The notes: generated by a model from the sequence alone, not told the origin. A DNA stretch of 64,000 nucleotides from Bacillota bacterium (GCA_017889635.1 JAGGAC010000026.1:16145-80144); one strand, 5' to 3'; numbered from the stretch's first letter, positions 15,556-63,297 are shown. Numbers and translations are program-made.

Positions 15556-15600
15556 ATTATAGCATCCTATCATTACAATTTTGTTACAATTTTTTTTACA
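15556..15600 (-). promoter_or_regulatory. WalR-like direct repeat TGTAAC-N5-TGTAAT, 10 bp upstream of TATAAT (amidase operon)
   Basis: Half-sites at 15583-15588 and 15572-15577; -10 at 15556-15561; third half-site TGTAAA at 15595-15600. Confidence 0.7.
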
Positions 15601-15635
15601 GGCATTGCCATATATGTATAAATAAATTAATATAG

Positions 15636-15657
15636 TAAATAGTATTATTACTATTTA
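15636..15657. promoter_or_regulatory. Zur-box-like palindrome
   Basis: TAAATAGTA-TTAT-TACTATTTA directly before the RBS of the Fur-family gene. Confidence 0.6.
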
Positions 15658-15673
15658 GGATGGTGTGTAAGTA

Positions 15674-16096
15674 ATGGAAAAATTATTGAATGCGCTCCGG
15701 GCTAAGGGTTACAAAATGACACCACAGCGCCGAGCCGTCGCAGCCGCTTTAATCAAGTGCGGAAAATTTGCCACAGCCCAGCAATTGCTGTTACAAGTCA
15801 AGCAAACAACACCCGATGTCAGTCTAGATACAATCTATCGCAACCTCAGTCTTTTTGTAAAATTGGGCTTGGTAACCGAAATCCATCTTCCTGGCCGGGA
15901 AGGTAATATATTTGAAGTAACTACTAATCAACACCATCATCATTTAGTTTGTATTAACTGTGGTAAAACCGAGTGTTTGGATTACTGCCCAATCAGCAGC
16001 CACGATCTCGAGAAAGCTCGGGAACGGGACTTTCAAATTATATCGCATGCTTTAGAATTCTATGGTTACTGCCGCACATGCCGGACGGCAGGATAA
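15674..16096 (+). CDS. Fur family transcriptional regulator (Zur-like)
   Basis: TPQRRAV, SLDTIYRNL, HHHHLVCINCG, C-terminal CRTC; next to a Zn-binding lipoprotein. Confidence 0.85.
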   Translation: MEKLLNALRAKGYKMTPQRRAVAAALIKCGKFATAQQLLLQVKQTTPDVSLDTIYRNLSLFVKLGLVTEIHLPGREGNIFEVTTNQHHHHLVCINCGKTECLDYCPISSHDLEKARERDFQIISHALEFYGYCRTCRTAG

Positions 16097-16129
16097 CCAA
16101 CTAACTAACAACCAAGGAGAGATATTATT

Positions 16130-17074
16130 ATGAAACTTAACGTAAAATCCATACTTATCCTGGCATTATCGTTATTATTGCCTATTTCACTGGCAGGGTG
16201 CGCCAATACTGCCAATACAGCTAAGTCGGCTGGAAAACTAAAGGTTGTAACTTCGATTTATCCGGTATATGAGTTCACCAAACAAGTAGGCGGCGATAAA
16301 GTTGACGTCAGCATGCTGGTGCCGCAAGGAGCCGAACCGCATGATTGGGAGCCGACAGCCACCCAACTCATCCAGATCAAATCCGCTAAACTCTTTTTGT
16401 ATCACGGAGCCGGCATGGAAAATCTCGATAAAATATTGAATCAAGATACACTAGGAACTGCCAAGGCGGTAGCGGTAAGCCAAAATATACAACCCCTAAA
16501 TGAGGAACATACTGGTGAGAATGAAGCTGATCATAGTGCCGGTCATAACCACCCGGACGCTCATATGTGGCTTGATCCCTTATCCGCCCAACAGGAAGTA
16601 TTAAATATTGCGCAGGCTCTTCAGGCTGTTGATCCTGAAAACAGCGACTACTATAAACAAAATGCTGAAAAATATAACAAAGAGTTAGCACAGCTTGACC
16701 AAGAATACCAAAGAACACTCAATAATCTTCCCAGGCGGGACATCATTACCAGTCATGCAGCCTTTAGTTATCTTACTAAGCGTTATAACTTGACCCAAGT
16801 AGCTATTATGGGACTAGCTCCCGACAGCGAACCGACCCCCGAAAAACTGGCTAATATAATCGACTTCTGCAAAAAACACAAGGTTAAATATATCTTCTTT
16901 GAAACGCTGGTTAGTCCAAAACTGTCCGAAACTGTAGCCCGGGAAACAGGGGCAAAACTACTTGTGCTTAATCCGCTTGAAAGCCTGACAGTCGACGAAA
17001 CAAATCAAGGTAAAAACTATATCACGGTTATGCAGGATAATCTAGCTAATCTAAAAATAGCACTTAGCGAATAG
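16130..17074 (+). CDS. Zn/Mn ABC transporter substrate-binding lipoprotein (ZnuA/AdcA-like)
   Basis: Lipobox LAGC; EPHDWEP, His-rich loop, DAHMWLDP, TSHAAFSY. Confidence 0.9.
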   Translation: MKLNVKSILILALSLLLPISLAGCANTANTAKSAGKLKVVTSIYPVYEFTKQVGGDKVDVSMLVPQGAEPHDWEPTATQLIQIKSAKLFLYHGAGMENLDKILNQDTLGTAKAVAVSQNIQPLNEEHTGENEADHSAGHNHPDAHMWLDPLSAQQEVLNIAQALQAVDPENSDYYKQNAEKYNKELAQLDQEYQRTLNNLPRRDIITSHAAFSYLTKRYNLTQVAIMGLAPDSEPTPEKLANIIDFCKKHKVKYIFFETLVSPKLSETVARETGAKLLVLNPLESLTVDETNQGKNYITVMQDNLANLKIALSE

Positions 17075-17076
17075 TA

Positions 17077-17136
17077 GTATAATAAAAAGAGGTAAAGCTG
17101 GTTCAGTACAAATCAGCTCTACCTCTTTTTATTATA
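17077..17136. terminator. Bidirectional terminator between convergent genes
   Basis: TATAATAAAAAGAGGTA...TACCTCTTTTTATTATA inverted repeat. Confidence 0.65.
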
Positions 17137-17153
17137 AAAGAAATTTCAAAGTC

Positions 17154-18449
17154 CTATTCCACGCTTACTCCTATTGCTTTATCTAAACGGGCCCGGCTGA
17201 CATTATAGTCATACAGCGCTTGGATATTGTTGGTTTTCGCAGTATTTAGGGCCAACTCGGCGTCAATAACATCAAGGTTGATTCCTATGCCGCTATTATA
17301 GCGTTTAAGGGCCACCGTAAAGTTAGTCTGAGCTTCCTCCACTGCCACCTTGCTTGTTTCAATACGCTTTTCAGCTTCTTTCAGGCTTAAATAAGCCTGA
17401 CTGGCTTCGAGCGTAATATTATCCCCAATTTCCTTTACCTGTTCCCTGGCTTTAATTAACGCATACTTAGCTTTCTCTATTTTAGCCGAACCTACCCCGG
17501 AATCCAATATATTCCACTCAGCTATCAACGCGGCAGTCCAGTGACTATAGTCTGTTCCTGGATACTCTATATTATTCCAGACATTTGTTCCGACCAAATT
17601 GACAGTTGGCCGCTTTTCCCCTTTGGCAATTTTCATTTGAGTTTCGGCAATTGCTAAGTTAGTTTTTACCTGATCTACTTCAAGCCGATGCTTTAACGCA
17701 TAATTAATGCTATCATCCATCGTCAGCGGATACTTATCGTATTTTAATTCCGCCTTCAATTTCAGTTCGCCGCGCAGGGGAAGTCCCATCACATGATTGA
17801 GCCGGTACACAGCCATCTCATAATTATTCTGAGCCTTTATCAAATTATCCTCAACATTAGCCACCTGAACCTTAGTCCTAAGTACATCGGCCTTAGCAAC
17901 AACCCCAACCTCAAATTGCCGTTCAACATTTCTCTGGTGGTTCGTGAGAGCATCCACCGATTGTTGGGTTACATTAACCATATTTCTGGTGGCAAGCACT
18001 TGATAAAAATCTGTTGTCGCCTCTAATTTTATGTCTTGTTTACTTGTTTGGAAACTTAAATTAGCTACTTTCGACCCCAGCTTTTGCGCCTCGACTGCGT
18101 TTTCCAGTTTACCTCCGCTGTAGAGCGGCACCGCCAACGTCAGTTTGTGACTAAAGTAATTATACGGCGACACCGCAGCCAGGGATGCCACATAGGTTGG
18201 CGGCTCGGTGGAACGCATATTGGTATTAGTATAAGTAAGCGAAAAGCCTTTATTGCCTTTGGATTCTTCTACTTCCCATAACGCTTTTTCTTTATCAGCT
18301 GCCGCCATTTTTACCCCATGGCTGTTTTTTAGCGCTAAATTAACACTATCCTCAAGTGTTAATTCGAGGGGATTTGCTAGTACCGGCTGCGTCACCATAA
18401 GTAAAGCAGAAATTATAAGCATTTTAGTAGTATAACGTGATCGTTTCAC
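17154..18449 (-). CDS. TolC family outer membrane efflux protein
   Basis: Signal peptide, LTLEDSVNLALKN, PLYSGG, two OEP repeats. Confidence 0.9.
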   Translation of the reverse strand: MKRSRYTTKMLIISALLMVTQPVLANPLELTLEDSVNLALKNSHGVKMAAADKEKALWEVEESKGNKGFSLTYTNTNMRSTEPPTYVASLAAVSPYNYFSHKLTLAVPLYSGGKLENAVEAQKLGSKVANLSFQTSKQDIKLEATTDFYQVLATRNMVNVTQQSVDALTNHQRNVERQFEVGVVAKADVLRTKVQVANVEDNLIKAQNNYEMAVYRLNHVMGLPLRGELKLKAELKYDKYPLTMDDSINYALKHRLEVDQVKTNLAIAETQMKIAKGEKRPTVNLVGTNVWNNIEYPGTDYSHWTAALIAEWNILDSGVGSAKIEKAKYALIKAREQVKEIGDNITLEASQAYLSLKEAEKRIETSKVAVEEAQTNFTVALKRYNSGIGINLDVIDAELALNTAKTNNIQALYDYNVSRARLDKAIGVSVE

Positions 18450-18514
18450 AAAACTGACCCCCTATAGCATTTTTCAGCTTAATATTCTCATCAACTATAT
18501 TTCTGCCATAGCTA

Positions 18515-21500
18515 TTACATCTTTCGAGTGTTTGTACTTACTGTTGACTTATCTTGATCCAGTGAAACTTTGTACCAGGCAGCATACATTGTCGGAAGAA
18601 CTAACAGGGTCAAGACTGTTGCTCCAAAAAGCCCGGCAGCAATTGCTACCGCCATAGGTCCCCAGAAAACGCTTGATACAAGGGGAATCATCCCCAGGAT
18701 AGCCGCAGCAGCGGTCAGCATAATCGGCCGGAATCTAATAACAGCCGCGTTTATTATTGCATCCCAAAGTGCTTCGCCGGCAGCAATCTGCTGTTCGATC
18801 TGGTCAATAAGAATAACTGAGTTCCTCATGATGATACCCATCAAAGCAAGTATGCCGAGTTGTACCACAAACCCCATGGGACTCCCGGTTAAGAGAAGCC
18901 CCAGGCTGACGCCAATAATGCCAAGCGGCGCAGTCAGCAAAGTCAGAATCATTTTCGGGATACTCTGTAGTTGGAACATAAGCAAGGTAAGAATAGCCAA
19001 AATCATCATCGGAATCGGCGCCATTAAAAAGGTTCCCGCCTTCTTACTCATCTCCAAAGGCCCGTCGATATCGATACTGTATCCTGCCGGCAGATTGTCA
19101 CGTACTTCCTTAAGTTTGTCATAAACTTTCTGCGCAGCATCATTCCCCATCGTTCCCTGAGTTACATTAGCCTGAATCGTAATCGTCGGCTTCAAATTCC
19201 GGCGCCAAATTAAACCTTCTTCAGCATCATAGCTTATTTTAGCAATCTGACCGAGTGGAACATACTTACCATTGCCAATCGAAATATTTATATCTTTTAT
19301 TTGATTTAAGTCTTTCTTGTTCTCATCGGCAAGACGAAAAACGATACTGACGGTTTTATCTTTTTCACGATACTCAGTTATCGGCGCTCCAGTTAAATAG
19401 GTCTGAAGACTCATCGCCAGACTCTGACTGTCAAGGCCAAGTGCCCTGGCCTTATCCTGATCGATATTTAGACGCATTACCTTGCTTTTCTCGTTCCAGT
19501 CGAAATTGATATCTTTAATTATCTCTTCCTTAGCCATAATATCCTCGACCTGTCCAGCAATTTCCCGAACCTTATCATGATCATGACCAGTAATTCTAAG
19601 TGCAACCGGGTATGGATTTGGCGGCCCCATTTGGATTACTGAAGTATTCGCGCGAACATTAGGAAAGTCTTCAGCAAACAAAGCCTGGACCTTTTTCTCC
19701 AGTTCTTTACGGGCCGTAAAATCTTTGGCGACAATAACAACCTGGGCATAACTAGTATCAGGAAGAGAAGGCGTTGCAGTCAACACAAAGCGGGGTGCGC
19801 TCTGGCCAACATAATAAGTGTAACTGACCATATTGGGATCATCGGCAATAAGCTGGGCAAACCTTTGTACTTCCTGTTCGGTTGCCGCTTGCGACGAGCC
19901 TTGCGGCAACCGCATGTCAACCATAAGTTCCGGACGAGTCGACGCTGGGAAAAATTCTTGTTTGACCAGTCCCAGGAGAGCCACTGAGCCGATAAAGCTG
20001 ACGCCAGTTATCCCGAGCACTAATTTCCTGTGACTAAGACACCATACCAATACACTTTTAAACAATCGATAAAACTTTTTGTCATAAATATCTGCTTCCT
20101 GTCCATGCTCGCCTGCTGGTTTTACTTTTACCAATAGATAACCAATAAGCGGAGTAACTGTGCCGGCAACGCCCCATGATATCAGCAAAGCGATTGTTAC
20201 AACCGTAAAAATACTGCCCACAAACTCGGCGGCACTTCCGGGAGAAAATCCTACCGGGATAAAGCCGGCGCAGGTAACAAGTGCTCCGGTCAGACGAGGA
20301 TAGGCCGTGGCGGTGTAAGCGAAGCAGGCGGCGTCAAACCTGGTCCACCCCTGTTCAAGTTTGACATTCATCGTTTCCACAACGATAATAGCATCATCCA
20401 CCAACAGCCCAAGAGCAATGATGAGTGCGCCCAACGAAATCTTCTGGAGATCAATACCGAATATATTCATTGCAATAAATACCCCGCAAATAACCAGGGG
20501 TATACAAAGCGCAACAACTATCCCAGATCTAACACCAAGACTTATGAAGCTAACGATAAGAACAATAAGAATCGCTTCAGCCAAAGATTCAACAAATTCG
20601 TTAATCGACGCTTTAACGACCTTGGGCTGATTGGCCACCGTATTTAGCTCCATTCCCAGCGGTAAACTTTTCTTGACCTCGGTCACTGTTTTTTCGAGGT
20701 TTTCCCCCATCGAAAGTACGTTACCGCCCTTTTCCATTGAAACAGCCAATCCGATGGCCGGCTGACCATTATAAAACATTTTTGGTTCCGCCGGCTCAAC
20801 ATAACTACGTTCTACTTTTGCAATATCACCCAGCCGAAAAGACTTACCGCCAGCACGAATAGGCAGACTTCGTAAAGCTTCGATATCTTCGAACATGCCG
20901 CTAACCCTTATGTATACATCATCAGATGTGGTCTCAAGCATGCCCGAAGGCGCCATAGCATTCTGGGCCTGCACGGCACTCACAATTAGGCCTGGATCAA
21001 TGCCTAACTGTGCCAGTTTGCTGCTTTCCATTTTAACATATATTTTTTCAGGCTGCACTCCAACCAGGTCGACTTTTTTTACATTAGGCACACTGAGCAA
21101 TGTTCGGCGGATTTTCTCAGCATTTTCCCGCATCTCTTCATAACTATAACCATCGCCAGTCATAGCATAAATAGTGCCAAACACGTCATCAAAACGGTCA
21201 TTAAAGTACGGACCGACAACACCTTGGGGCAGCGTTCCTTTTATATCGTTAACCATGTTACGTACTTCCAGCCAGGTAGGTCTAACCGAGGCTTCTGAAA
21301 TTGTATCTTTGAGGTTAACATAGATAACCGCCTGCCCGGTACTGGAGAAACTTTTTACATAGTCAATCCCGGGGGTATCCTGAAGCTTTCTTTCAATCTT
21401 ATCGGTAACCTGTTCCTCCACCTGACGGGCGGTGGCGCCAGGCCAGGCAACACTTACAACCATCTGCCTGATTGTAAAATCCGGGTCCTCCAGCCGTCCA

Positions 21501-21562
21501 AGCTTTTGATAGGAAAATATCCCGCCGAGAAATATAACCAGTATAAAGTAATATATCAGTTG
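18515..21562 (-). CDS. RND efflux transporter permease (AcrB family); native start deleted, first in-frame ATG at 21463
   Basis: GLLVDDAI and RFRPIMLT motifs; TM1 (QLIYYFILVIFLGG...EDPDF) is in frame upstream of 21463 but preceded by a stop codon. Confidence 0.85.
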   Translation of the reverse strand, partial: QLIYYFILVIFLGGIFSYQKLGRLEDPDFTIRQMVVSVAWPGATARQVEEQVTDKIERKLQDTPGIDYVKSFSSTGQAVIYVNLKDTISEASVRPTWLEVRNMVNDIKGTLPQGVVGPYFNDRFDDVFGTIYAMTGDGYSYEEMRENAEKIRRTLLSVPNVKKVDLVGVQPEKIYVKMESSKLAQLGIDPGLIVSAVQAQNAMAPSGMLETTSDDVYIRVSGMFEDIEALRSLPIRAGGKSFRLGDIAKVERSYVEPAEPKMFYNGQPAIGLAVSMEKGGNVLSMGENLEKTVTEVKKSLPLGMELNTVANQPKVVKASINEFVESLAEAILIVLIVSFISLGVRSGIVVALCIPLVICGVFIAMNIFGIDLQKISLGALIIALGLLVDDAIIVVETMNVKLEQGWTRFDAACFAYTATAYPRLTGALVTCAGFIPVGFSPGSAAEFVGSIFTVVTIALLISWGVAGTVTPLIGYLLVKVKPAGEHGQEADIYDKKFYRLFKSVLVWCLSHRKLVLGITGVSFIGSVALLGLVKQEFFPASTRPELMVDMRLPQGSSQAATEQEVQRFAQLIADDPNMVSYTYYVGQSAPRFVLTATPSLPDTSYAQVVIVAKDFTARKELEKKVQALFAEDFPNVRANTSVIQMGPPNPYPVALRITGHDHDKVREIAGQVEDIMAKEEIIKDINFDWNEKSKVMRLNIDQDKARALGLDSQSLAMSLQTYLTGAPITEYREKDKTVSIVFRLADENKKDLNQIKDINISIGNGKYVPLGQIAKISYDAEEGLIWRRNLKPTITIQANVTQGTMGNDAAQKVYDKLKEVRDNLPAGYSIDIDGPLEMSKKAGTFLMAPIPMMILAILTLLMFQLQSIPKMILTLLTAPLGIIGVSLGLLLTGSPMGFVVQLGILALMGIIMRNSVILIDQIEQQIAAGEALWDAIINAAVIRFRPIMLTAAAAILGMIPLVSSVFWGPMAVAIAAGLFGATVLTLLVLPTMYAAWYKVSLDQDKSTVSTNTRKM

Positions 21563-22592
21563 AATTTAAGCCTTCGAGTACCTGAACCTGATTGTTTCCA
21601 TACTGTCCAAGTTTGACAGGCCGCAAATTGACTATGTCGCCGCTCACCACCCATACATTAGGCACATCATCAGTTTGGTAAATTGCTGATAACGGAATAT
21701 ATATCGCAGGCTTAGTACCAGATGCATCTACAGCAACCGTTGCTGTCATACCAAGTTTTAATTCTGGTGGCGAATTTAAAAGGCTAATCCTGGCCTTATA
21801 GGTTCGGGTTACTTTGTCGGCCACCGGAGCTATTTCCCGGACCTTACCGTCAACAATTGTCCCCGGCAGCGCCCAAAAGGTAACTTTAATCTGCGAAGCT
21901 TTGCGCAATTCCTCCACTTTGTTTTCTGGAATGCTTATTTCTACTTCCTGTTCGCCGCTCTTAATCAGCGTAATAACCTTTTGTCCTACGCCAACTACCT
22001 GGCCAACCTCAACATCGATACCAGCAACCACACCGTCGCAATCGGCATAAAGTGAACTGTAGTCTAATTGGTTTGATCCCTGAGCATACTGAGCTGAAGC
22101 CTGCCGTGCTGCGGCAACGGCAGCGTCATAAGCACTTTGCTGCTGTTCATATGCGGCTCGGCTAACAATTCCGTCATCATATAGCTGGCGGTAACGGCTA
22201 AGATTATTTTCCGCAAGCTTTAACTGGGACTGAGAAGAATAAACCTGTGCTGAACTAATATTAACATTTTGCTGAATATCCTTAGCATCAATCTGCATCA
22301 GAACATCTCCGGCATGAACAATACTCCCAAGCTCGACGTTGCGTTTAATGATTTTTCCGCCTACCTGAAAAGCCAACTGACTTTCATATCGGCCCCGTAC
22401 CTCGCCGGAATATGTATTAGTTTGATTCATAGCGCCAACACCAATCGTACTGGTACGAACCAACGGTACATCCACATCCACCGCCTTGGTCGATGAACTT
22501 GATCCGATAATCAGCCCTGCCGCTACACACAGTAATACCACCAGAGCTGCCAACCCATAATACATTTTCTTTTTCTCGAGCCTTTTTTGCAA
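21399..22592 (-). CDS. RND efflux periplasmic adaptor (MFP); C-terminus replaced by out-of-frame tail downstream of about 21553
   Basis: LAFQVGGKI and LKLGMTA MFP motifs; sequence diverges after GLNSTDI. Confidence 0.85.
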   Translation of the reverse strand: MQKRLEKKKMYYGLAALVVLLCVAAGLIIGSSSSTKAVDVDVPLVRTSTIGVGAMNQTNTYSGEVRGRYESQLAFQVGGKIIKRNVELGSIVHAGDVLMQIDAKDIQQNVNISSAQVYSSQSQLKLAENNLSRYRQLYDDGIVSRAAYEQQQSAYDAAVAAARQASAQYAQGSNQLDYSSLYADCDGVVAGIDVEVGQVVGVGQKVITLIKSGEQEVEISIPENKVEELRKASQIKVTFWALPGTIVDGKVREIAPVADKVTRTYKARISLLNSPPELKLGMTATVAVDASGTKPAIYIPLSAIYQTDDVPNVWVVSGDIVNLRPVKLGQYGNNQVQVLEGLNSTDILLYTGYISRRDIFLSKAWTAGGPGFYNQADGCKCCLAWRHRPSGGGTGYR

Positions 22593-22745
22593 CTATCCCA
22601 CTCCCACTGCCAAATTTCTTTTTAAAATATACCAACCTAAATGCCCCCTGATATTGACGACTATTGGTTAGATACCCCCTCCTTTAAGCCCGAATCCGCG
22701 GTAAAACATTAAACATAAAAGTAAAATAGCAAAGCTCTATATTTT

Positions 22746-22767
22746 TTGACTGACTTCAGTCAGTCAA
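22746..22767. promoter_or_regulatory. Putative TetR operator
   Basis: Palindrome TTGACTGAC-TTCA-GTCAGTCAA upstream of the RND operon. Confidence 0.7.
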
Positions 22768-22798
22768 TGGCATAAAAAAGCTAGCCTTTTTACCATGC

Positions 22799-38355: not shown

Positions 38356-38631
38356 TTATTTGATTTTAAAATAGGCCTTCATTGGTTTAATGTTTAGACC
38401 CAGATGTATTAGACCGGCAATAATAAATATATAGCCCGCCAATTCATGCACTCCCTTGGGATAGACAGATTGAGCCGGACGCGCTGGAACGCTGGTATCA
38501 ACACTATTATTAACTGCTGACTTTTCTATCGCGGGTGGCTTACCTCCGCCATGATACAGCGCCATTTGCAACCCTGTTATAGAAACAAGCAAAAAGGTCA
38601 CTAACAGGACAATTGACGTAATTCGCCGCAT
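38356..38631 (-). CDS. DUF4405-like small membrane protein
   Basis: LVSITGL TM, HELAG, HLGLN pattern. Confidence 0.7.
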   Translation of the reverse strand: MRRITSIVLLVTFLLVSITGLQMALYHGGGKPPAIEKSAVNNSVDTSVPARPAQSVYPKGVHELAGYIFIIAGLIHLGLNIKPMKAYFKIK

Positions 38632-40139: not shown

Positions 40140-40172
40140 CGTAACATTCTTGTAACATTATAATATTATACT
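40140..40172 (+). promoter_or_regulatory. WalR-like direct repeat CGTAAC-N5-TGTAAC, 10 bp upstream of TATACT
   Basis: Half-sites 40140-40145 and 40151-40156; -10 at 40167-40172. Confidence 0.7.
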
Positions 40173-40224: not shown

Positions 40225-40593
40225 ATGAAAAAGACATTAACTGTACTACTTGCTTTATTTGTTGTCGGCCTTGCACCAACTGTAAGTGCTAATGCTGTAA
40301 ATCCAGACTTAGCTGCTCCACAATATCAAATGTATGCTGCTCCAAACGAACCGGTACCACCTGCTCCACACAAAAAGAAGAAACCTCGCCCTCAACCTGC
40401 ACCGCATAAACTTGCACCGCAGCAACCTGCACCACATAAACCTGCACCGCAGCAACCTGCACCACAGCAACCTGCACCGCATAAACTTGCACCGCAACAA
40501 CCTGCACCGCAGCAACCTGCACCGCAGCAACCTGCACCGCATAAAAAACCTATACAGCATAAACCCGGTCAACCGGACCAGCCACAACCTTAA
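40225..40593 (+). CDS. Secreted Pro/Gln/His-rich repeat protein
   Basis: GGAGG RBS, Sec signal peptide (..TVSA), ten QPAP(H/Q)-type pentapeptides. Confidence 0.8.
   Translation: MKKTLTVLLALFVVGLAPTVSANAVNPDLAAPQYQMYAAPNEPVPPAPHKKKKPRPQPAPHKLAPQQPAPHKPAPQQPAPQQPAPHKLAPQQPAPQQPAPQQPAPHKKPIQHKPGQPDQPQP
40393..40542 (+). repeat. 15-bp tandem repeat x10 (coding)
   Basis: Units such as CAACCTGCACCGCAG/CAT and AAACTTGCACCGCAG. Confidence 0.9.
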
Positions 40594-42639: not shown

Positions 42640-42672
42640 TGTAACAACATTGTAACAATCATCTTTTATAAT
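42640..42672 (+). promoter_or_regulatory. WalR-like direct repeat TGTAAC-N5-TGTAAC, 10 bp upstream of TATAAT
   Basis: Half-sites 42640-42645 and 42651-42656; -10 at 42667-42672. Confidence 0.75.
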
Positions 42673-42697: not shown

Positions 42698-42916
42698 ATG
42701 AAAAAGACATTAGTCGCAGTACTTGGCTTATTTGTTTTGAGCATTGGCTCAACAGTAAGCGCTCACAGCCAACTCGAGATTGCACAACAACCACCAGTGC
42801 AGACCGCTTATGCAGCGCCAGGTCATCAACCTGAGCCCCAGCCTGCTCCTCAGCCTGCTCCTCACAAAAAGAAAGCAAAACCAGCTCCGCATCAAGGCGA
42901 ACAACCCAGACCATAA
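42698..42916 (+). CDS. Small secreted Pro-rich protein, paralog of 40225..40593
   Basis: AAGGAGG RBS; MKKTL..TVSA signal; shared YAAP and PAPHKKK. Confidence 0.8.
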   Translation: MKKTLVAVLGLFVLSIGSTVSAHSQLEIAQQPPVQTAYAAPGHQPEPQPAPQPAPHKKKAKPAPHQGEQPRP

Positions 42917-52257: not shown

Positions 52258-52312
52258 CGTAACAAAACAGTAATAAATCTGATAAAATGTTGTTACATGC
52301 TCTTGGTATAAT
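52258..52312 (+). promoter_or_regulatory. Four WalR-like half-sites at 11-bp period, last one 10 bp upstream of TATAAT
   Basis: CGTAAC(52258), AGTAAT(52269), TGATAA(52280), TGTTAC(52291); TATAAT at 52307-52312. Confidence 0.6.
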
Positions 52313-52344: not shown

Positions 52345-53637
52345 GTGAAATTGTCTCAACGGTGTCGCATCACCTTAATTTCTAGCTTAGTCATTGCAGC
52401 TTTATGCCACCCTGTGTTTGCAGGCCCAATTGAACTCACTTTAGACGATAGTATTAAATTAGCACTTAAAAATAATTACGATACTAAAATTGCAGAGGCC
52501 AACAGGGAACAGTATGCCTGGGCCATAAAACAAGCTAAGGCAAATAAAGGAGCTGCACTAACCTACGCTCATACCAGCGAACGTTATAATACCCCTCCTA
52601 CTATATACACGCCCAACTATACATATACCAACACTTTTGACAATCAGCTGTCCCTCACTTTCCCAGTATACTCCGGCGGTAAATTAGAAAGTAAAATTGA
52701 CCAGGCCAAACTTGATCTCACTGTTGCTGATCTTGATCTCGCTACCGCGAAACAGCAACTAAAACTAAATGTAGTAACCTACTACTTTAATGTCCTCGAG
52801 TACCGCAACGAAGTCCGAAATTGTCAAGAAACGGTTAATAATTACACAGAACACCTAAACCTGGTTAACAATAAATATCGTCTAGGTATGGTGGCAAAAA
52901 CCGATGTTTTATCAAGCCAGGTCAATCTGGCTGACGGCCAAGACAGTCTGATTAAAGCTCAAAATAACTATAATAACGCAGTAGCCACTCTCAATAATGC
53001 GCTTGGTCTTCCTCATGGTTCAGAGTTATCCCTAAAAGATGACTTTAAATATGTAAAAAATACACAGACCCTTGAAGAATGCCTTAATTACGCCGAAAAC
53101 CACCGACCGGAAATAGCCCAGTATAAAGCAAAAGTTGCCAGTGCTGAAGCCGATATCAAAATTGCCAAAAGCGGCTATCGTCCAACAGTTGATCTCACCG
53201 CCCAACAAGACTGGAATGATAGCCATCTACCTGGAACAGAAAACAGTAATTGGCTGGTAAAATTGACTGCATCTTTTAATTTATTTGATTCAGGCTTAAC
53301 CGACTCCCAAATTCACCAAGCTGACTACAGTTTGACCAAAGTTCGCCACCAAGCTAACCAAAAACGCGATTCAATTTTACTGGATGTACGTCAGTACTAT
53401 TTAAGTATGTATGAAGCCGAAAAAAGAATTGAAACAAGCAAAGTTTCTGTTAATCAAGCTTCCGAAAACCTGATGATTGAGAAAGCCAAATATAATCTCG
53501 GAGCTGGTACAAATATCGATGTCCTTGACGCTGTATTATCACTTGATAAAGCCAAGAAAAATTATACTCTGGCGTTATATGACTATAACACCGCTAAAGC
53601 CTCACTAGAACAAGCTATGGGGATACCAGTTAAATAA
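52345..53637 (+). CDS. TolC family outer membrane protein
   Basis: Signal peptide, LTLDDSIKLALKNN, PVYSGG; paralog of 17154..18449. Confidence 0.9.
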   Translation: MKLSQRCRITLISSLVIAALCHPVFAGPIELTLDDSIKLALKNNYDTKIAEANREQYAWAIKQAKANKGAALTYAHTSERYNTPPTIYTPNYTYTNTFDNQLSLTFPVYSGGKLESKIDQAKLDLTVADLDLATAKQQLKLNVVTYYFNVLEYRNEVRNCQETVNNYTEHLNLVNNKYRLGMVAKTDVLSSQVNLADGQDSLIKAQNNYNNAVATLNNALGLPHGSELSLKDDFKYVKNTQTLEECLNYAENHRPEIAQYKAKVASAEADIKIAKSGYRPTVDLTAQQDWNDSHLPGTENSNWLVKLTASFNLFDSGLTDSQIHQADYSLTKVRHQANQKRDSILLDVRQYYLSMYEAEKRIETSKVSVNQASENLMIEKAKYNLGAGTNIDVLDAVLSLDKAKKNYTLALYDYNTAKASLEQAMGIPVK

Positions 53638-55973: not shown

Positions 55974-56009
55974 CACAGGAAATGAAACCGAATATAAGGA
56001 GGTATTTGT

Positions 56010-56123
56010 ATGGGTCTCGGTAGATTCGGTTGCGGTGGCGGCGGAGGCTCTATCGCTATTGTGATCATAATCATTATTCTGCTCCTATTATTCTGGGGTG
56101 AAGAAAGTTCTGTATCTATTTAA
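56010..56123 (+). CDS. 37-aa Gly-rich single-TM microprotein (YjcZ/SscA-like)
   Basis: TAAGGAGGT RBS; MGLGRFGCGGGGGSIAIVIIIIILLLLFWGEESSVSI; paralog at 63574. Confidence 0.8.
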   Translation: MGLGRFGCGGGGGSIAIVIIIIILLLLFWGEESSVSI

Positions 56124-56252
56124 GCTCAACACTTTTCACTTACAGAATACTATCTCGCCCTGCTAGCACCCCTATTATCCCCCCTATTTTATAAATGGCA
56201 ATGGTACTATCAGATAATTAGTCAAGCCCTACCAGCCAGCCAAACTTCTAAA

Positions 56253-56307
56253 TACTCCATAACTAAGCACCTATTTCTTATTGAAATAGGTGCTTAGTTA
56301 TGGAGTA
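56253..56307. repeat. 25-bp perfect inverted repeat (hairpin)
   Basis: TACTCCATAACTAAGCACCTATTTC-TTATT-GAAATAGGTGCTTAGTTATGGAGTA. Confidence 0.75.
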
Positions 56308-56676
56308 GAGCATGCATGATCACACTCCTTTACTACAACTATAGAAATAATCCATCAACTAGATATCTTTGTATCTAATAATAAGAATTTTTTACTAGCC
56401 GCCTTTTTAATACCAAATCTTAAAGATATTATGTAGATTTATCCTTGTATAATATATAACTATAAAGGAGGGAACGCCTACCAAGCAATATTACAAAGTT
56501 AATGTGCATAGAAAAAAACATGTGAAGACCCCGTGGATATTAGTAACTTCACTGTACAATTCAAGGAAAAAGCAGCTGCCGTTGAAATCCCTGGAGCTCC
56601 AATTAAGCTGGCGCAATAGTAAAGAACAGCAATCAGTAATTACAAAATAACATTGCTTAAAAGGAGCGATATTTTC

Positions 56677-57165
56677 TTGAAATGGGTTAATCACAAACTG
56701 GTTACAGGCAGTTTAATTTTTGCAGTAACCGGCAATCCGATTCTAAGCTTAGTTTCAGCAGCTGGCAGCATTGTTCCAGATGCTATAGAAAGAATGCCAA
56801 TCGGCAAACGAATGACTCATAGACAATTCTCGCATTGGTGGCTTCCATATCTGGTAGTCTTCTATTTATCATATTCCTCTGCATCACAGCATGGGGTTCT
56901 TAATATAACTGCCAAGAATATTTACGACTTAGTTTTCTATCAACATTTTTCGTCCCTAAGCGGCTTTTTAGTGATAGCTTACTTCAGTCTTGGTAGCCTG
57001 CTACACATTGCTGAAGATGCCTTCTGTGGAACAGTTCCTTGTATTACTATTCATCACCGGATTGGAATAAAATTATTTAAGGTCGGCTCACCACGGGAAT
57101 ATTTGATCGCTTTTAGTCTCAGTTTGCTGCTTTTGTCCAGTAGACTGTATTTAGGCTGGTTTTAA
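56677..57165 (+). CDS. Membrane-bound metal-dependent hydrolase (YdjM family)
   Basis: MKWVNH, PDAIE, HRQFSH, HIAED motifs; TTG start after AAGGAG. Confidence 0.8.
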   Translation: MKWVNHKLVTGSLIFAVTGNPILSLVSAAGSIVPDAIERMPIGKRMTHRQFSHWWLPYLVVFYLSYSSASQHGVLNITAKNIYDLVFYQHFSSLSGFLVIAYFSLGSLLHIAEDAFCGTVPCITIHHRIGIKLFKVGSPREYLIAFSLSLLLLSSRLYLGWF

Positions 57166-57213
57166 TAACCACCACGGCTTAATCATAATCATGATTAAGC
57201 CGTGGTGGTTATT
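57164..57213. terminator. Bidirectional terminator (23-bp stem)
   Basis: AATAACCACCACGGCTTAATCAT-4nt-ATGATTAAGCCGTGGTGGTTATT between convergent genes. Confidence 0.7.
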
Positions 57214-57214
57214 T

Positions 57215-58927
57215 TTATATTTTAAAATTTTGGATTGCCTGTTGTAATTCCTCTGCCATCTTAGCTAACGCCTGACCAGAAGCTGCAATTTGTTCCATAG
57301 ATGCGGATTGCTCTTCAGTTGCTGCTGATACCGTCTGAGTCTGGCCAGCGGTATTTTTGCTTTCGTCGTCAATTGCTTTTACAGCCCCCACAATTTGCTG
57401 GCTACCAGCAGCCATCTCCTCTATAGCAGTCGATATTTCCCGTACTTGATTGGACATTTGTCCAATCATCTGAACAATTTCACGGAAACTTGCTCCAGCC
57501 ATATTAACAACCTCGGTGCCTGTTGTAACTTCTTTTTTCCCTTCATCCATAAAGGTAACTGCATCACTAGTCTTACTTTGAACTTCACTAATTAAATTGG
57601 CAATTTGCTTTGCAGATTCTTGGGACTGTTCAGCAAGTTTGCGTACTTCATCAGCAACCACTGCAAATCCGCGCCCCTGCTCCCCAGCTCTTGCCGCTTC
57701 AATTGCAGCATTTAAGGCTAAAAGATTAGTCTGCCCAGCAATACTTGATATAACCTCAACAATTTGGCCGATCTTTTTCGATTTCTCTTCCAATTCACTA
57801 ATCACATTTGCTGTATTTGTTGTCTTCTCTTCAATAACAAGCATCTGATTTACTGCTTTTTCTATAGCTTTTTCTCCGTCATTTGCTGTCCTTGCCGTTT
57901 TTTCCGCCGCACTTGAAACTCCATTGGCATTTGACGCTACTTGCTGTATTCCGGCTGACATTTGTTCAACAGTAGCGGTTGAGGCTTCTATAGCCTTAAG
58001 CTGTTTTTCTGTTCCTTTGGCAACTTCAGTAATTGAAAAAGCAACTTGATTGGCTGCTTGTGCTGATTGCTCAGCACTTGATGCCATTTCCTCAGAAGAT
58101 GCAGCCAAATGTTCAGATGTTTGAGTCAACTGCCTAATTAAGCCTCGCATATTTTCGTTTGTTTTATCAAAGGCTTTCGCCAGATCACCAGTTTCATCCT
58201 GCGAATTAAGATGATCTGCCAATACATCAATTGAAAAATTCCCTTTAGCAATTTCACTCATATGTAGAATTGCGCCATGAATTGGTCTGGTAATCTTCCG
58301 GGTAATAATAACAGCAGTTCCTATGCCGATGACAACCGCAACTATTGTCAGTACTAGCAATACCACATAAGCACCTTTCCCTGTAACCTTAGCATCCTCA
58401 AACGCATCGTCGATTTGTTTATTACGAAATTGAATATATTCTTCTTGCTTTTTACTAATCTCCGCCGCCGTAGGCTCTAACTCACTTCTCATAACTGCAA
58501 ATAGTTCTTCGAATTTCCCTTCCCGCCTTAACGGAATAACCTTTTCCATAGCTATTTTATTGTATGCATCATCCAATGCTTTTAGCTCTTGTGCAAACTG
58601 CTTATCCTGCGGAGTAATTGCCATCTCAATTAATTCTTGAGTAATTTGATTATCTTCTTTCCCTAGCTTTTCATACTCCTCTAAATAAGAATCTTTTCCT
58701 ATAACTAAAAAACCTAGTACTTGTGCCATTTTTAAATTATTATTACTAACTAGCTTATTGGTTTTTTCCAACAAAACTAGATTTTTTTCCTGTAAATTTT
58801 CATTAATACAATTCATACTCTTAATCAAATACATTCCCACACTAGTAGAAATAACCATAATTACGAGAACAACTACAAAACCAATCGTAATTCTTGTTCC
58901 AATTCTCACGTTGCTAGCACCATCCAT
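57215..58927 (-). CDS. Methyl-accepting chemotaxis protein (4HB sensor, HAMP)
   Basis: Two TMs; [38 protein letters not shown]. Confidence 0.95.
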
Positions 58928-59365
58928 TTTTCTGTATATTTATTTTCCATCATTACACAATTAGCCATCACATTACTAACATTGGATAACTATTTATATC
59001 GTAATCACCTCAATCCCCCGCCCCTCTGCATCGTCTACAAATATATTGCCTCAGATTTACTATAATCAAGTTTACGGCTACGTGCATTTATTGTTGCATT
59101 TCCAAATTCTTTTTCCTTATTCACCTTTCATTTTTTGACATTTTATTATCTTTTTTCGATATTATTTTACATTTTCCTCTATCTTTTTCCAATTATATCT
59201 AAACTTCCATACCAAATTCTAATATTACAAGAAATATTCTAGCATCAAGATTGACAAAGATTCTAAATAGCTGCTATGTTATTTCCAATAATTTCTATAA
59301 GTTTTAGTTATCTAAGTTTGCTCACGCCAGGAATATTGATATGACCACCTTACTCCATGAATAGC

Positions 59366-59423
59366 TATAAGTAATTAGAGAAGCCATGGGCTTATAAGCC
59401 CATGACTTCTCTAATTACTTATA
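59366..59423. repeat. 58-bp near-perfect loopless palindrome
   Basis: 29-bp arms with one mismatch, centred on CTTA|TAAG. Confidence 0.75.
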
Positions 59424-59629
59424 TAAAAATCTGGTCAAACATAACAATTTTGTTTTCAGGCACACAAATTGCGTTAAATAAATGTAGATAAAAAATCCAA
59501 CAACTTATTTGTTGGCTCAATACTTAAATTTAGGCATATAAAAACGCCCTCATCCAAGTAATATTTATTCTCAAAACGGTAAAAACAGTACCATTGTGAG
59601 AATATGAAAAAAATTTAAAGGAGAGTAAA

Positions 59630-59900
59630 ACGAGTTACCTTGATACTGCCCACGAATTATACAAAACAGCAGCATTATCTCCGCAAACAAAACTTTGCTG
59701 CGTTACAAACCAGCCAAAGTATCTATCAGAATTAATTTTTCCCAGCATCATGCACGAAATGAATTACGGCTGTGGAACAACAGTCCATTTAGGTGAACTA
59801 AATCCCCAAGCAACTAGATGGCAACCTTCGCGCCCTCCAGCGCAAAGATCTCTTCATTACTCAACCTACCTATCATTATACCAGTGGAGGTTGCTGTTAA
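59630..59900 (+). pseudogene. arsM: Collapsed arsenosugar-type arsenite methyltransferase remnant
   Basis: AAAGGAGAG RBS then ACG-SYLDTAHELY...LCCV...MHEMNYGCGTTVH; C-terminal TYHYTSGGCC* in another frame; middle missing. Confidence 0.7.
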
Positions 59901-59941
59901 AATAACACCATATTTATTAGTCAGAAAGTGAGGTTTTACTA

Positions 59942-60844
59942 TTGCTAAAAATCTGGTTTTGGGCATTAAGACCTTGGTCTTATACTGCCGCATTTGTGCC
60001 TGTCGCCCTCGGTACCGTTTTAGCTGCATGGCAGGACAAATTCGATATTGGCTTGTTTCTCCTGACACTGGTGGGGGGAGTTTTTATGCAGGCAGGAACT
60101 AATTTAATAAATACCTACGGTGATTACATATCCGGAGTAGACACTCTGGATTCGGCAGTAACTTGTCCGCAATTAGTATCCGGAATATTGAAACCGTTTG
60201 AAATAAAAGCAGCCGGAATAGTTTTTTTTGCTTTTGCCTGCGCAATTGGAGGCTGGCTCACTTATCAGCGAGGCTGGCCAATCATCATTGTCGGCTTGAT
60301 AGGCCTAATAGGCGGTTATTGTTACACCGCAGGTTTTTCATATAAATACAAAGGTTTGGGTTCGATTGTGGTCTTTTTCCTGATGGGCCCACTCATGGCT
60401 TGGCCGGCATATTTTATTCAAACCGGCCAATTGAACTGGCTCCCAGTATGGGTTTCCCTTCCTGTTGGGTTTCTTGTGGCCGGTATATTGCATGCTAACG
60501 ATCTAAGGGATATGGCTTATGACCGCCAAGCAGGCATAAAGACTCTTGCATTAATTCTCGGACTGCGAAAAAGTATGACTCTTTATTACAGTTTGTATTT
60601 AGCCGCTTTCCTTTGTCTCGCCGGAATGGTGTCTGCTTCACTTTTGCCTTGGACAGCTGCTTTACCGGTAATATTAATACCAACAACATTAAAATTACTA
60701 GACCAAGCTAGGATTGCTGCCAAAGGCTCGCGTGAAGCTATGCTCGTCCTCGAAAGCGCAGCCGCCAAATTTCATTTTCAATTTGGTTTGTTGCTGATTG
60801 CCGGTGTTGCTATCCATCCCCTTGCGCAAAGGTGGCTAATGTGA
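59942..60844 (+). CDS. menA: 1,4-dihydroxy-2-naphthoate prenyltransferase (UbiA family)
   Basis: ALRPWS, NLINTYGDY..GVD, HANDLRD..D..AGIKTL. Confidence 0.85.
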   Translation: MLKIWFWALRPWSYTAAFVPVALGTVLAAWQDKFDIGLFLLTLVGGVFMQAGTNLINTYGDYISGVDTLDSAVTCPQLVSGILKPFEIKAAGIVFFAFACAIGGWLTYQRGWPIIIVGLIGLIGGYCYTAGFSYKYKGLGSIVVFFLMGPLMAWPAYFIQTGQLNWLPVWVSLPVGFLVAGILHANDLRDMAYDRQAGIKTLALILGLRKSMTLYYSLYLAAFLCLAGMVSASLLPWTAALPVILIPTTLKLLDQARIAAKGSREAMLVLESAAAKFHFQFGLLLIAGVAIHPLAQRWLM

Positions 60845-61464
60845 ATAAAAAACCTGCCACAATACAGATATTACTTTGCCTTCTATTGGCATTTTGCTTT
60901 TGGTATCTTACCTTTACTGTGAAATTATTGAATTTCTGGCTCTCTATGGCGATTGCCGCAATCATTCTGTCCACTCTGGCCTTGGCTTTCGGCGCCCATA
61001 ACTTACAAAAAAGCGAACTCACCCTCGATAACTTTTTACGCGGGCTTTTTGCTGCACTTATCCTTTACGGAATCTTTAGGGCCGGAAATATCATTTCACA
61101 AGCCCTGTTTCATTTTGCTAAACCAGAGATATCTTCAATCTATAGCATCCGTAGTGAAGGACAGGCCGCCATTATCACCTTTGTGTTGTTATTTATCACC
61201 AGTCCTGGGGAAGAATTCTTCTGGCGAGGCTTTCTACAGCGCTGGACAATGGAACGGTTTGGCCCTATAATAGGCTGGCTCACTGCCTCTATAATCTATG
61301 GCGCCGTTCATATTGCATCAGGTAATATCATGCTAGTGCTGGCAGCGCTGGTCGCTGGACTATTCTGGGGCTGGCTTTACCGTTATTCAGGCAGCTTGTT
61401 TGCATGCATAATTTCACATGCAGTTTGGACTGTGGGGATATTTGTTTTGTTTCCAATCCTATAG
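60841..61464 (+). CDS. CPBP family intramembrane metalloprotease
   Basis: EEFFWRG, YGAVH, SHAVW motifs; GTG start overlaps menA stop. Confidence 0.85.
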   Translation: MNKKPATIQILLCLLLAFCFWYLTFTVKLLNFWLSMAIAAIILSTLALAFGAHNLQKSELTLDNFLRGLFAALILYGIFRAGNIISQALFHFAKPEISSIYSIRSEGQAAIITFVLLFITSPGEEFFWRGFLQRWTMERFGPIIGWLTASIIYGAVHIASGNIMLVLAALVAGLFWGWLYRYSGSLFACIISHAVWTVGIFVLFPIL

Positions 61465-61504
61465 CCAATATAAATAATACACTTCCTTTATAAATTGCCC
61501 ACTT

Positions 61505-62512
61505 TCATTTTTCTCCTTGTACTGGAATAAATTCCATAATCAAAACCCGAATAACCGCTAATATTGGAACCGCCATAACCATGCCTAAAACACCAAACAA
61601 ATGACCAAAAAAGAGTAAGCCGATCATAACAACAACAGGATGAAGATTAACTGCCCGCCCAATCAACTTAGGGGAAATAATATTGTGATTAATCTTTAGC
61701 ATCACAACATAAAATACGACAACTTTTAGAGCAATGGCTGTTGAATGAACCAGTCCAAGGCTTGTCGCTAAAAAAGCAACAGCCACCGGCCCTACAACCG
61801 GTACAAATTCAGCGAAAGTGCCAAGTGCAGCAAATACAGCCGGAAACGGCTGCCCCATGATAGTAAAAAATATAAATCCCGCAATCCCGGAAAATAAACA
61901 TACTGATAATTGCCCTCGAATGTAGGCGCTTAATACCCTGGCAATCTCAGCACAAACTTTAGTTAATCTAACCTGTTCATATTCTGGAGCAAAACTAAAT
62001 AAACCGGCACGCAATTTTTCTCCATCTTTCAAAAAGTAAAAAACAATAAAAGGAACACCAATAAGTTCAACAACTCCAGACATTGCATGAAGTAGTGGGT
62101 AGATAGCATTCTTTAAGCCTTCTAATGCAAACCCCGCAACCTCATTTACTCCTCCATTAACATATTCAGTAAGTTCGGGTGGTAAATTTAGACGTTCCAT
62201 CAGCGCATCAATTTCAACTGGATTAATATAGTGTGGAAGCTTAGTTGCAAACTGGGCAAAACTCGGCAAAATAGAACGTACTATCCAACAAGAAAACAGC
62301 AGAAAAGCCCCTAAGAACAGTACAAGTATAAGAATTGACGCCCAGCTGGACCCTATACGTCGTTTAAGTTTTTCCACCAATGGACGAAGTAACAGGGTAA
62401 GTAAAAACGCAATAAAAAGCACAATCGCAAGCTTGGTCGCAAGCCAAAACACCAATGTTATAGCAACAGTCAGTAGCGCTAGGTATCCGTAAGTCCAATT
62501 CCATCTAATCAT
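61505..62512 (-). CDS. AI-2E family transporter
   Basis: FYFLKDG, YIRGQL, PKLIGRAVNLHP, GVLGMVMAVP. Confidence 0.9.
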   Translation of the reverse strand: MIRWNWTYGYLALLTVAITLVFWLATKLAIVLFIAFLLTLLLRPLVEKLKRRIGSSWASILILVLFLGAFLLFSCWIVRSILPSFAQFATKLPHYINPVEIDALMERLNLPPELTEYVNGGVNEVAGFALEGLKNAIYPLLHAMSGVVELIGVPFIVFYFLKDGEKLRAGLFSFAPEYEQVRLTKVCAEIARVLSAYIRGQLSVCLFSGIAGFIFFTIMGQPFPAVFAALGTFAEFVPVVGPVAVAFLATSLGLVHSTAIALKVVVFYVVMLKINHNIISPKLIGRAVNLHPVVVMIGLLFFGHLFGVLGMVMAVPILAVIRVLIMEFIPVQGEK

Positions 62513-62698
62513 TTAGCCACCCCTATTTAAAATAGTAGCCTATAAATACAAGCAAATCTTAGCCCAACAAATCCTACGTTTTGCACATCTATTTTAGCAG
62601 ATAATTCGACAATCCACAAATTCTTACAAAAAAGTGAACTCATCCATTATTAACGGACAAGTTCACTTTTTCCATTTTATCAACTTAGAAAAATAGAC

Positions 62699-63238
62699 TT
62701 AGAATTTGTAGTTAACGCCAACACCTAAACCGTCGTAAGTGGCATAACCGTCATCTTTAGTAGATTTATAGCCTACATTAAGCGAAACATTGCGATCTAG
62801 CGCATAGTTGACGCCAGCTTGCCATTCGGTAGTGTAGCTATTACCAATAATTGATGCATAGCCGTCCATTCTTGGAGCCAGCTTAGTGGTATAACCTACA
62901 CCGTAAAAAACTTTGTTCGATACATTACCATAATCGTAATCGCGATCTCCAACAATAATGCGGAAATTGGGATTAAGCTTGTAATGGGCGTAGATGTCAG
63001 TCGTATTCCAATCATCGTAATCACAAGTAGAGTTATTGTTACGTTCAATACCCAACGTAAATTTGTCAGAAACATCACCTTGTAAATAAACACTACTATT
63101 ATCGGTACTATGACTCAAACTGTAGTAGTTGTAACCAACAGCTGCTTCACCTGTCCACATGTTGGTGATTGGAGCCGCAAAGCCAACACTTGAAACCATC
63201 ATTGAGCCGGCTACAAGTGCCAAAATTGTTTTTTTCAT
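62699..63238 (-). CDS. Small outer-membrane beta-barrel protein
   Basis: Signal peptide, Tyr/Gly-rich amphipathic strands, C-terminal VNYKF. Confidence 0.75.
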   Translation of the reverse strand: MKKTILALVAGSMMVSSVGFAAPITNMWTGEAAVGYNYYSLSHSTDNSSVYLQGDVSDKFTLGIERNNNSTCDYDDWNTTDIYAHYKLNPNFRIIVGDRDYDYGNVSNKVFYGVGYTTKLAPRMDGYASIIGNSYTTEWQAGVNYALDRNVSLNVGYKSTKDDGYATYDGLGVGVNYKF

Positions 63239-63264
63239 ATTTTTTCACCCTCCTTATAGAGGAT

Positions 63265-63297
63265 ATTTTACCATCCAAATGTTACAAAACTATTACA
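63265..63297 (-). promoter_or_regulatory. WalR-like direct repeat TGTAAT-N5-TGTAAC, 10 bp upstream of TAAAAT
   Basis: Half-sites 63292-63297 and 63281-63286; extended -10 TGGTAAAAT. Confidence 0.7.

Follow-up and report, generated by a model that had tools for sequence, protein, structure and literature searches.

The subject of this analysis is a stretch of 64,000 nucleotides from a Bacillota bacterium (GCA_017889635.1, JAGGAC010000026.1:16145-80144; the whole stretch is called the window below, G000:C113:16145-80144), and a direct repeat that recurs in it upstream of genes with envelope-related products. The source genome (G000) comprises 4.54 Mb in 152 contigs, with 42.4% G+C. The repeat, TGTAAC(A)-N4/5-TGTAAC(A), stands in the place of a -35 element, with a gap of exactly 10 bp to the sigma-A type -10 hexamer downstream. 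Sequence comparison suggests, with a probability that we put at roughly 0.75, that this box is the operator of a two-component system formed by an OmpR-type response regulator (RR) and a histidine kinase (HK), both encoded on another contig (C62) of the same genome.

The initial annotation had placed an exact box, a 10-bp gap and a -10 hexamer upstream of five named genes, and this was borne out by direct reading of the transcribed strand: five exact boxes of the form (Y)GTAAY-N5-TGTAAY were found, each 10 bp from a putative -10 hexamer (TATAAT, TATACT or TAAAAT). Every site in the window faces the gene that had been named for it, as judged from Pfam matches and open reading frames (ORFs). The five putative promoters, and a sixth, weaker candidate, are as follows.

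15588-15556, minus strand: TGTAAC-AAAAT-TGTAAT-N10-TATAAT, putative promoter of the amidase-GerMN operon (box at 15572-15588, -10 TATAAT at 15556-15561, TGC directly before the -10)
38723-38691, minus strand: CGTAAC-ATTAA-TGTAAC-N10-TATACT, putative promoter of a DUF4405 membrane protein gene
40140-40172, plus strand: CGTAAC-ATTCT-TGTAAC-N10-TATACT, putative promoter of the gene for a 122-aa Pro-rich secreted protein (Pro-rich 1)
42640-42672, plus strand: TGTAAC-AACAT-TGTAAC-N10-TATAAT, putative promoter of the gene for a 72-aa Pro-rich secreted protein (Pro-rich 2)
63297-63265, minus strand: TGTAAT-AGTTT-TGTAAC-N10-TAAAAT (TGG before the -10), putative promoter of the gene for a 179-aa secreted protein
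52258-52312, plus strand: CGTAAC/AGTAAT/TGATAA/TGTTAC at 11-bp period, weak candidate promoter of a stand-alone TolC/OEP gene, with the last half-site (TGTTAC) 10 bp from TGG-TATAAT

The window holds five matches to the pattern, against a mean of 0.06 in 100 shuffled sequences, none of which reached five. When the spacer of YGTAAC-Nk-YGTAAC was varied from 0 to 15, 10 pairs were obtained at k=5 and 0-3 at each other k; the distance from half-site to -10 hexamer was 10 bp in 27 cases, compared with 9-23 cases at other spacings. The repeat occupies the -35 region, as the initial annotation had noted, and no match to a -35 element is present.

A genome-wide profile search of the source genome found 15 Trans_reg_C regulators. 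The candidate among them is encoded together with its kinase, at G000:C62:137158-139343, and next to the gene of a secreted protein (P0001).

G000:C62:137158-137847: OmpR/PhoB-family response regulator (RR), 229 aa; Response_reg 107 bits, Trans_reg_C 96.3 bits
Following the RR gene: histidine kinase (HK), 499 aa, with HAMP, HisKA and HATPase_c domains (Pfam)
L009:11435-12214, outside the window: P0001, secreted, 259 aa, with LTKEQ and LTEDQ motifs (by eye)

The two boxes with the highest scores in the genome (34.8 and 31.8 bits on the matrix described below) stand on either side of the RR-HK pair. The first, TGTAACACAGTTGTAAC-N10-CATAAT, faces an operon for HlyD, an ABC ATPase, a MacB permease and an OEP protein, which is divergent from the RR gene; the second, TGTAACACAATTGTAAC-N10-CAAAAT, stands directly after the HK gene and before the P0001 gene. 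Read from its sequence, the HK has two hydrophobic segments on either side of an extracytoplasmic region of ~145 aa, a layout that points to a periplasm-sensing kinase. The closest solved relatives of the RR DNA-binding domain include VicR, ArlR, YycF/WalR and PhoB, which fits a half-site of the TGTWAH type (PMC4168254).

One source labels a homologue of P0001 as 'LTXXQ motif protein', a homologue is assigned by its sources to Methylomusa anaerophila (Negativicutes), and only 27 relatives were found in a collection of 5.8 billion proteins. The confidently predicted model (predicted local distance difference test, pLDDT, 80.5) consists of two helical repeats. Foldseek found no match to this model in the PDB at E <=0.001 and Pfam gave no LTXXQ/Metal_resist match at E <=0.01; a Spy/CpxP-like fold was rejected on these grounds, and a Spy- or CpxP-like role of P0001 would be an analogy and not a result. 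A second OmpR-family pair, RR2-HK2 (heavy-metal/RppA-like type, L009:12460-14377), is encoded just downstream of P0001 in the source genome; it may be co-transcribed from the second flanking box, which would make a two-step regulatory cascade possible.

The association of box and regulator is kept in relatives. Orthologues of the RR (at least 59% identity; paralogues at most 48%) were found in 18 of 30 related genomes, and a box lies inside the RR-HK locus in all 18 (17 by filter, G020 by eye). In the usual layout one box faces a MacAB-TolC-type operon and the other precedes a P0001 homologue (37-39% identity), the P0001-type gene being always beside the two-component system. The core sites in these relatives have a weakened -10 (CATAAT or CATACT). 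Paralogue loci carried no box at one mismatch or fewer (0/11). Across the class (Negativicutes), a site of at least 14 bits was present in 18 of 20 further orthologue loci, which came from other families and were not part of the matrix training set; these sites lie ~100 bp from the RR gene, and the reversed matrix gave 0/20. In the two loci missed, the box stands just after the HK gene, beyond the stretch scanned. The promoter layout is thus kept in 38 orthologous loci.

An RR orthologue was present in 52 of 151 genomes sampled from the class and in 0/21 genomes of each of two large families. The pattern YGTRAC-N5-HGTAAC-N11-A-N3-T was searched in the same 151 genomes, with the following counts, which are used here as a pattern and not as a probability.

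Genomes with an RR orthologue (n=52): 107 pattern matches and 15 reversed-control matches; at least one match in 47/52
Genomes without an RR orthologue (n=99): 21 pattern matches and 27 reversed-control matches; at least one match in 18/99

Enrichment of the box is thus confined to the genomes with an RR orthologue. A rival reading is that a different OmpR-family regulator binds the box, namely one of the WalR-like housekeeping regulators L040 and L042 or the neighbouring RR2. The box fits the WalR/VicR consensus TGTWAH(A)-N5 in the form quoted further below, and an amidase, a classic WalR target, is among the genes behind it. On the YycF model, L040 (258.5 bits) and L042 (244.5 bits) are the best of the 15 regulators and score above the candidate RR (218.2 bits); none of the 15, however, reaches the cut-off of 340 bits. 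RR2-HK2 adjoins the RR-HK locus in G000, G001, G002, G023 and G021, and an RR2-like gene of G004 (L138) has a 31.2-bit site before it. In G004, G005, G012, G016, G022 and G024, on the other hand, RR2 is no neighbour and the boxes still flank the RR-HK genes. Nor does L040, the regulator with the best YycF/PhoB scores, track the box across the sampled genomes:

L040 only: 47 genomes, 15 pattern matches
Candidate RR only: 12 genomes, 15 pattern matches
L040 and candidate RR: 40 genomes, 92 pattern matches
Neither: 52 genomes, 6 pattern matches

The 15 matches in the L040-only genomes are about the control rate, and in one family (f10) L040 is absent from all 10 genomes, yet 9 of these have pattern matches. 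Binding by one of these other regulators is accordingly unlikely, and the RR encoded on C62 would be the protein that recognises the box.

Genome-wide, the pattern of the initial annotation occurs 16 times, five of them inside the 64-kb window, and exact TGTAAC-N5-TGTAAC occurs seven times against none for the reversed control. An independent matrix was trained on 22 distinct sites taken only from the RR-HK loci of relatives, with none from the source genome. In full width, with spacer columns, this matrix missed the DUF4405 and Pro-rich 1 sites at a 10-bit threshold; it was then limited to the half-site and -10 columns, a restriction chosen after the full-width result was known, and in this form gave 12 matches of at least 20 bits in the source genome against none for the reversed matrix, and 16 of at least 18 bits against one. 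Crude ORFs cover 86% of this genome; of the 12 top matches, 11 are intergenic. The window sites scored as follows.

Pro-rich 2 site: 31.2 bits, third best in the genome
Pro-rich 1 site: 27.5 bits
179-aa protein site: 21.5 bits
DUF4405 site: 21.2 bits
Amidase site: 18.2 bits
TolC array: 6.2-6.4 bits

The scan with a position-weight matrix that the initial annotation had proposed hence recovered the five exact sites of the window at 18.2-31.2 bits. For TolC, the described arrangement of four half-sites at 11-bp period, the last 10 bp from TATAAT, is present as claimed, but its matrix score is only about 6 bits. The putative regulon, for which six promoters had been envisaged, is genome-wide, with about 16-25 promoters instead of six. 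The window, 1.4% of the genome, holds five of the 16 best sites (at least 18 bits). Good sites score on the opposite strand too, since the reverse complement of TGTAACA is TGTTACA, with a change at the centre base alone; such opposite-strand matches were seen within 63277-63300 in the window and at G000:C150:10809-10845, where the match faces a divergent UbiA-family gene.

The genes behind the boxes of the window are:

14387-15481, minus strand: N-acetylmuramoyl-L-alanine amidase, secreted, Amidase_3 (Pfam)
13791-14387, minus strand: Germane/GerMN protein (Pfam); the amidase operon spans 13791-15481
38356-38631, minus strand: DUF4405 membrane protein, 91 aa (Pfam)
40225-40593, plus strand: Pro-rich secreted protein 1, 122 aa, signal peptide (ORF)
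42698-42916, plus strand: Pro-rich secreted protein 2, 72 aa, signal peptide (ORF)
52345-53637, plus strand: TolC/OEP protein, stand-alone gene (Pfam OEP)
62699-63238, minus strand: 179-aa secreted protein, weak beta-barrel matches only

The best NCBIfam match of the amidase is CwlD, at 172 bits and below the cut-off of 221.55, and no Pfam family was found for the two Pro-rich proteins. Alongside the Germane protein and the CwlD-like amidase, genes for two lipid A acyltransferases, two OEP proteins and beta-barrel proteins are present in the window; these features, together with the Methylomusa anaerophila homologue of P0001, fit the label 'diderm Firmicute'. The intergenic region of the amidase promoter is shared with a divergent gene for a Fur-family regulator, followed by a ZnuA gene (15589-17074); the two are likely a Zur/zinc-uptake pair.

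Outside the window, good sites precede an OmpH/Skp gene, a gene for a 515-aa Omp85 protein with POTRA domains and an HlyD-AcrB pump, and further ones precede genes for a small EamA-like membrane protein and for three secreted proteins (193, 127 and 540 aa). Another ten or so sites belong to paralogous His/Pro-rich secreted peptides of 49-75 aa with near-identical signal peptides, a group that extends to 49-122 aa with the Pro-rich pair of the window; the members outside it are encoded on contigs C92 (two copies), C73, C89, C51, C106, C57 and C40 of the source genome. In their promoters the distal repeat is degenerate, while the proximal CGTAACA, the 10-bp spacing and TACAAT are preserved. The peptides belong to no Pfam family, and that they bind metal is a guess from their His content. 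Several of these sites stand before long stretches that had seemed free of ORFs, and a role as rRNA or tRNA promoters was considered. The idea was dropped after neither Rfam nor ARAGORN had given a match in 8 loci and the peptide ORFs of 49-75 aa had been recognised behind the sites. By a crude signal-peptide rule, 18 of 30 first downstream ORFs scored positive, against 736 of 4318 crude ORFs genome-wide (17%). Both the ORF caller and the rule are rough: the signal peptides of P0001, the amidase and the 179-aa protein were missed, and at the site of the 179-aa gene the rule scored a wrong small ORF.

Orthologue conservation was found for four of the six window targets. In G020, a site of 23.8 bits lies 32 nt ahead of the start of the DUF4405 orthologue (43% identity, E 4e-25). 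Upstream of the 179-aa protein gene, the site scores 27.2 bits in G012 (56% identity) and 12.0 bits in G004, and in G001 only the proximal TGTAAC, the 10 bp and TACAAT are kept. The TolC orthologue in G004 (67% identity) has an 18.2-bit site ~40 nt before its start, and Pro/His-rich peptide genes are preceded by sites of 19.5 bits in G001 (a 75-aa homologue of the 122-aa protein) and 25.2 bits in G004. Among targets outside the window, the orthologue of the 540-aa secreted hydrolase in G004 (77% identity) has a 31.2-bit site and that of the RND adaptor in G012 (64% identity) a site of ~14 bits. Conservation upstream of orthologues, as the initial annotation had asked for, was thus seen for the DUF4405, 179-aa, TolC and Pro-rich peptide sites and failed for the amidase (0/8).

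A further site, also outside the window, precedes a stretch with the properties of a small RNA gene.

G000:C28:11723-11851 (= L008:2424-2552), plus strand: candidate small RNA, ~125 nt

Its promoter has four half-sites at 11-bp period, the last 10 bp from TAAAAT, similar to the TolC array. The stretch is predicted to fold at -43.1 kcal/mol (z -5.5). Compensatory changes preserve the pairing of a 17-bp 5' hairpin, the C-rich loop of which is conserved, and a terminator hairpin comes after it. The stretch had no Rfam match; a homologous stretch with the same four-half-site promoter is present in G001 and G002. The candidate RNA probably belongs to the regulon.

From these elements the following mechanism is proposed. 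The HK would sense an envelope signal and phosphorylate the RR, which would occupy both direct repeats (about -39 to -23 relative to the predicted transcription start) in a head-to-tail arrangement and recruit RNA polymerase as the class II activators PhoB and CiaR do. The conserved core would be the MacAB-TolC-type efflux operon divergent from the RR gene and the secreted helical LTXXQ-motif protein encoded after the HK gene. In the source genome this core would have grown into a regulon of roughly 16-25 promoters, of which the window holds five or six: those of the two Pro-rich proteins, DUF4405, the small outer-membrane-type protein, the amidase-GerMN operon and, weakly, TolC. Members elsewhere would include Skp/OmpH, the Omp85 paralogue, the RND pump adaptor, the ~10 His/Pro-rich peptides and probably the small RNA. 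Such a content looks like that of an envelope-stress or detoxification response. The idea of the initial annotation that one OmpR/WalR-like activator co-controls envelope genes through a direct repeat gains support from the comparative evidence, except that the regulator is no WalR equivalog.

The same RR could instead repress: bound to the box it would occlude the promoter, and an active HK would turn the genes off. A protein bound at about -39 to -23 would indeed block RNA polymerase, and an extended -10 (TGn), which can work without a -35, is present in many of the promoters. The strict 10-bp phasing and the lack of a -35 match are, however, hallmarks of activated promoters of the CiaR and PhoB type, and the weakened core -10 (CATAAT/CATACT) is expected of activator-dependent promoters; repression appears improbable to us. 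Still less credit is given to the explanation that there is no common regulator, the promoters having been duplicated along with the genes of the Pro/His-rich peptides and the remainder being matches that arose by chance in AT-rich intergenic DNA. Nearly identical promoters are indeed shared by about ten small paralogous peptide genes, both Pro-rich genes of the window among them, but the box also precedes the non-homologous amidase, DUF4405, 179-aa, Skp, Omp85, HlyD and LTXXQ genes, the reversed controls are near zero, the spacing is specific and the box is kept beside the RR across families. Recognition of the hexamers by an alternative sigma factor of the extracytoplasmic function (ECF) type is hardly credible: although TGTAAC resembles some ECF -35 elements, the hexamer occurs in at least two copies at 11-bp period (as many as four before TolC and the small RNA), the gap between the proximal repeat and the sigma-A type TATAAT/CATAAT is only 10 bp, shorter than a -35/-10 pair would need, and the motif co-occurs with a response regulator. 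An ECF sigma promoter, a Zur box and LytTR-type repeats had been considered as identities of the motif and were dropped in view of its being a direct repeat of 11-bp period, 10 bp from a sigma-A -10.

Several observations weigh against the assignment of the box to the C62 system as an activator site. Many of the box promoters, with their extended -10 (TGn), might work without an activator. RR2-HK2, a second OmpR-family pair, is encoded next to the RR-HK locus as well in G000, G001, G002 and some other genomes. Box variants with one mismatch (23 found) are not visibly enriched as a class, so the signal is carried by a small set of good sites, and the TolC array cannot be told from background by its matrix score. 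About ten of the promoters belong to a single peptide family, in which the box was possibly shared by duplication. The related genomes are not independent, and the co-occurrence counts overstate significance. Finally, no site of at least 11 bits was found upstream of the amidase at 8 homologous loci in 5 relatives, and none upstream of Skp (0/8) or Omp85 (0/6) at homologous loci in 5 relatives; given its absence at these loci, the amidase site ties the regulon to peptidoglycan hydrolysis in the source genome alone.

In its widest form, which we offer tentatively and at somewhat less than even odds, the reading would be that the RR-HK module constitutes a class-wide envelope-stress response of diderm Firmicutes, the functional counterpart in Negativicutes of Cpx and Bae. 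It would consist of a periplasm-sensing HK, an OmpR-type RR, an adjacent LTXXQ-motif periplasmic partner and one box at one promoter position, and would act on tripartite efflux, Skp, an Omp85 paralogue, small barrels, the amidase, the His/Pro-rich peptides and a conserved small RNA. As to its origin, the module would have evolved from an LTXXQ-RR-HK operon that is also present in monoderm Firmicutes, there with a different repeat in the same geometry. The Negativicutes are a model for the retention or loss of the outer membrane in Firmicutes. A literature search, which did not cover subscription journals and supplements, found no such regulon and no envelope-stress or outer-membrane circuit described for them. 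The present result supplies a concrete candidate regulator, its box and promoter geometry, a ranked target list and a lineage distribution. The targets tie together efflux pumps, Skp and Omp85 paralogues, a candidate small RNA and many unstudied secreted His/Pro-rich peptides; envelope repair or defence in a diderm Firmicute could come to light through each of these. The mechanism is of the textbook OmpR/PhoB type, and the advance is a well-defined regulon of an unnamed system and not a new principle.

Among known systems, WalRK shares the box. The VicR/WalR box is given as TGTWAH-N5-TGTWAH, with the refined VicR form TGTWAHA-N4-TGTWAHA, in the passages of PMC4168254 that concern it, and TGTWAH-N5-TGTWAH is matched by each of the five boxes of the window and by the conserved core boxes. 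The RR DNA-binding domain is near the VicR and YycF structures, and one target is a cell-wall amidase. The candidate RR, however, reaches only 218.2 bits on the YycF model (NF040534, cut-off 340), and the HK 207.6 bits on the WalK model (NF033092, cut-off 725), with the match confined to the catalytic core and no PAS domain found by Pfam. WalR orthology of the RR was ruled out by these NCBIfam cut-offs, the HK being without the WalK architecture. The conserved core targets also differ, being an efflux pump and an LTXXQ protein and not peptidoglycan hydrolases; the only hydrolase among the cell-wall targets is the amidase of the window, the site of which is not conserved.

The promoter layout is identical to that of CiaRH in streptococci. 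CiaR promoters were searched as hexamer-N5-hexamer, followed by 10 bp to TATAAT, in the relevant passages of PMC3091779, which also describe an OmpR-family, envelope-related regulon that includes small RNAs. The candidate small RNA behind the same type of box recalls the CiaR-dependent small RNAs (csRNAs). The half-site is TGTAAC here and TTTAAG for CiaR, and the system described here belongs to a bacterium with an outer membrane, with efflux pumps, outer-membrane factors and Pro/His-rich peptides as targets. CiaR is not among the best NCBIfam matches of the RR.

The pho box, too, sits 10 bp from the -10. In PhoBR, as here, direct repeats of 11-bp period replace the -35 (PhoB consensus as quoted in PMC4168254), and PhoB needs strict spacing to the core promoter, according to the section of PMC10294691 on this point. 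The RR differs in scoring 212 bits on the PhoB model, against a cut-off of 296.2, and phosphate-uptake genes are absent from the targets.

In content, the regulon resembles those of BaeSR and CpxRA of Proteobacteria, with multidrug efflux, an Omp85/BamA paralogue and a helical periplasmic LTXXQ-type protein encoded next to the system. Under BaeSR control are spy, mdtA and bamK (PMC13059784) and, in Acinetobacter, MacAB-TolC (PMC4498774). The systems are not orthologous (BaeR model 194.5 bits against a cut-off of 380, CpxR model 151.7 against 341), the box is another one, and P0001 differs from Spy and CpxP in lacking a Pfam LTXXQ match and a fold match to either.

Homologues of the RR with 59-62% identity also occur in other classes of the phylum, where a TGTAAC-type site was found in 0/11 loci. 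In three of these (L158, L159 and L160), an LTXXQ-RR-HK operon follows three GT(T/A)CAC repeats at 11-bp period, the last of them 10 bp from TATACT. The same geometry with a different half-site outside the class is as expected if the box follows its regulator.

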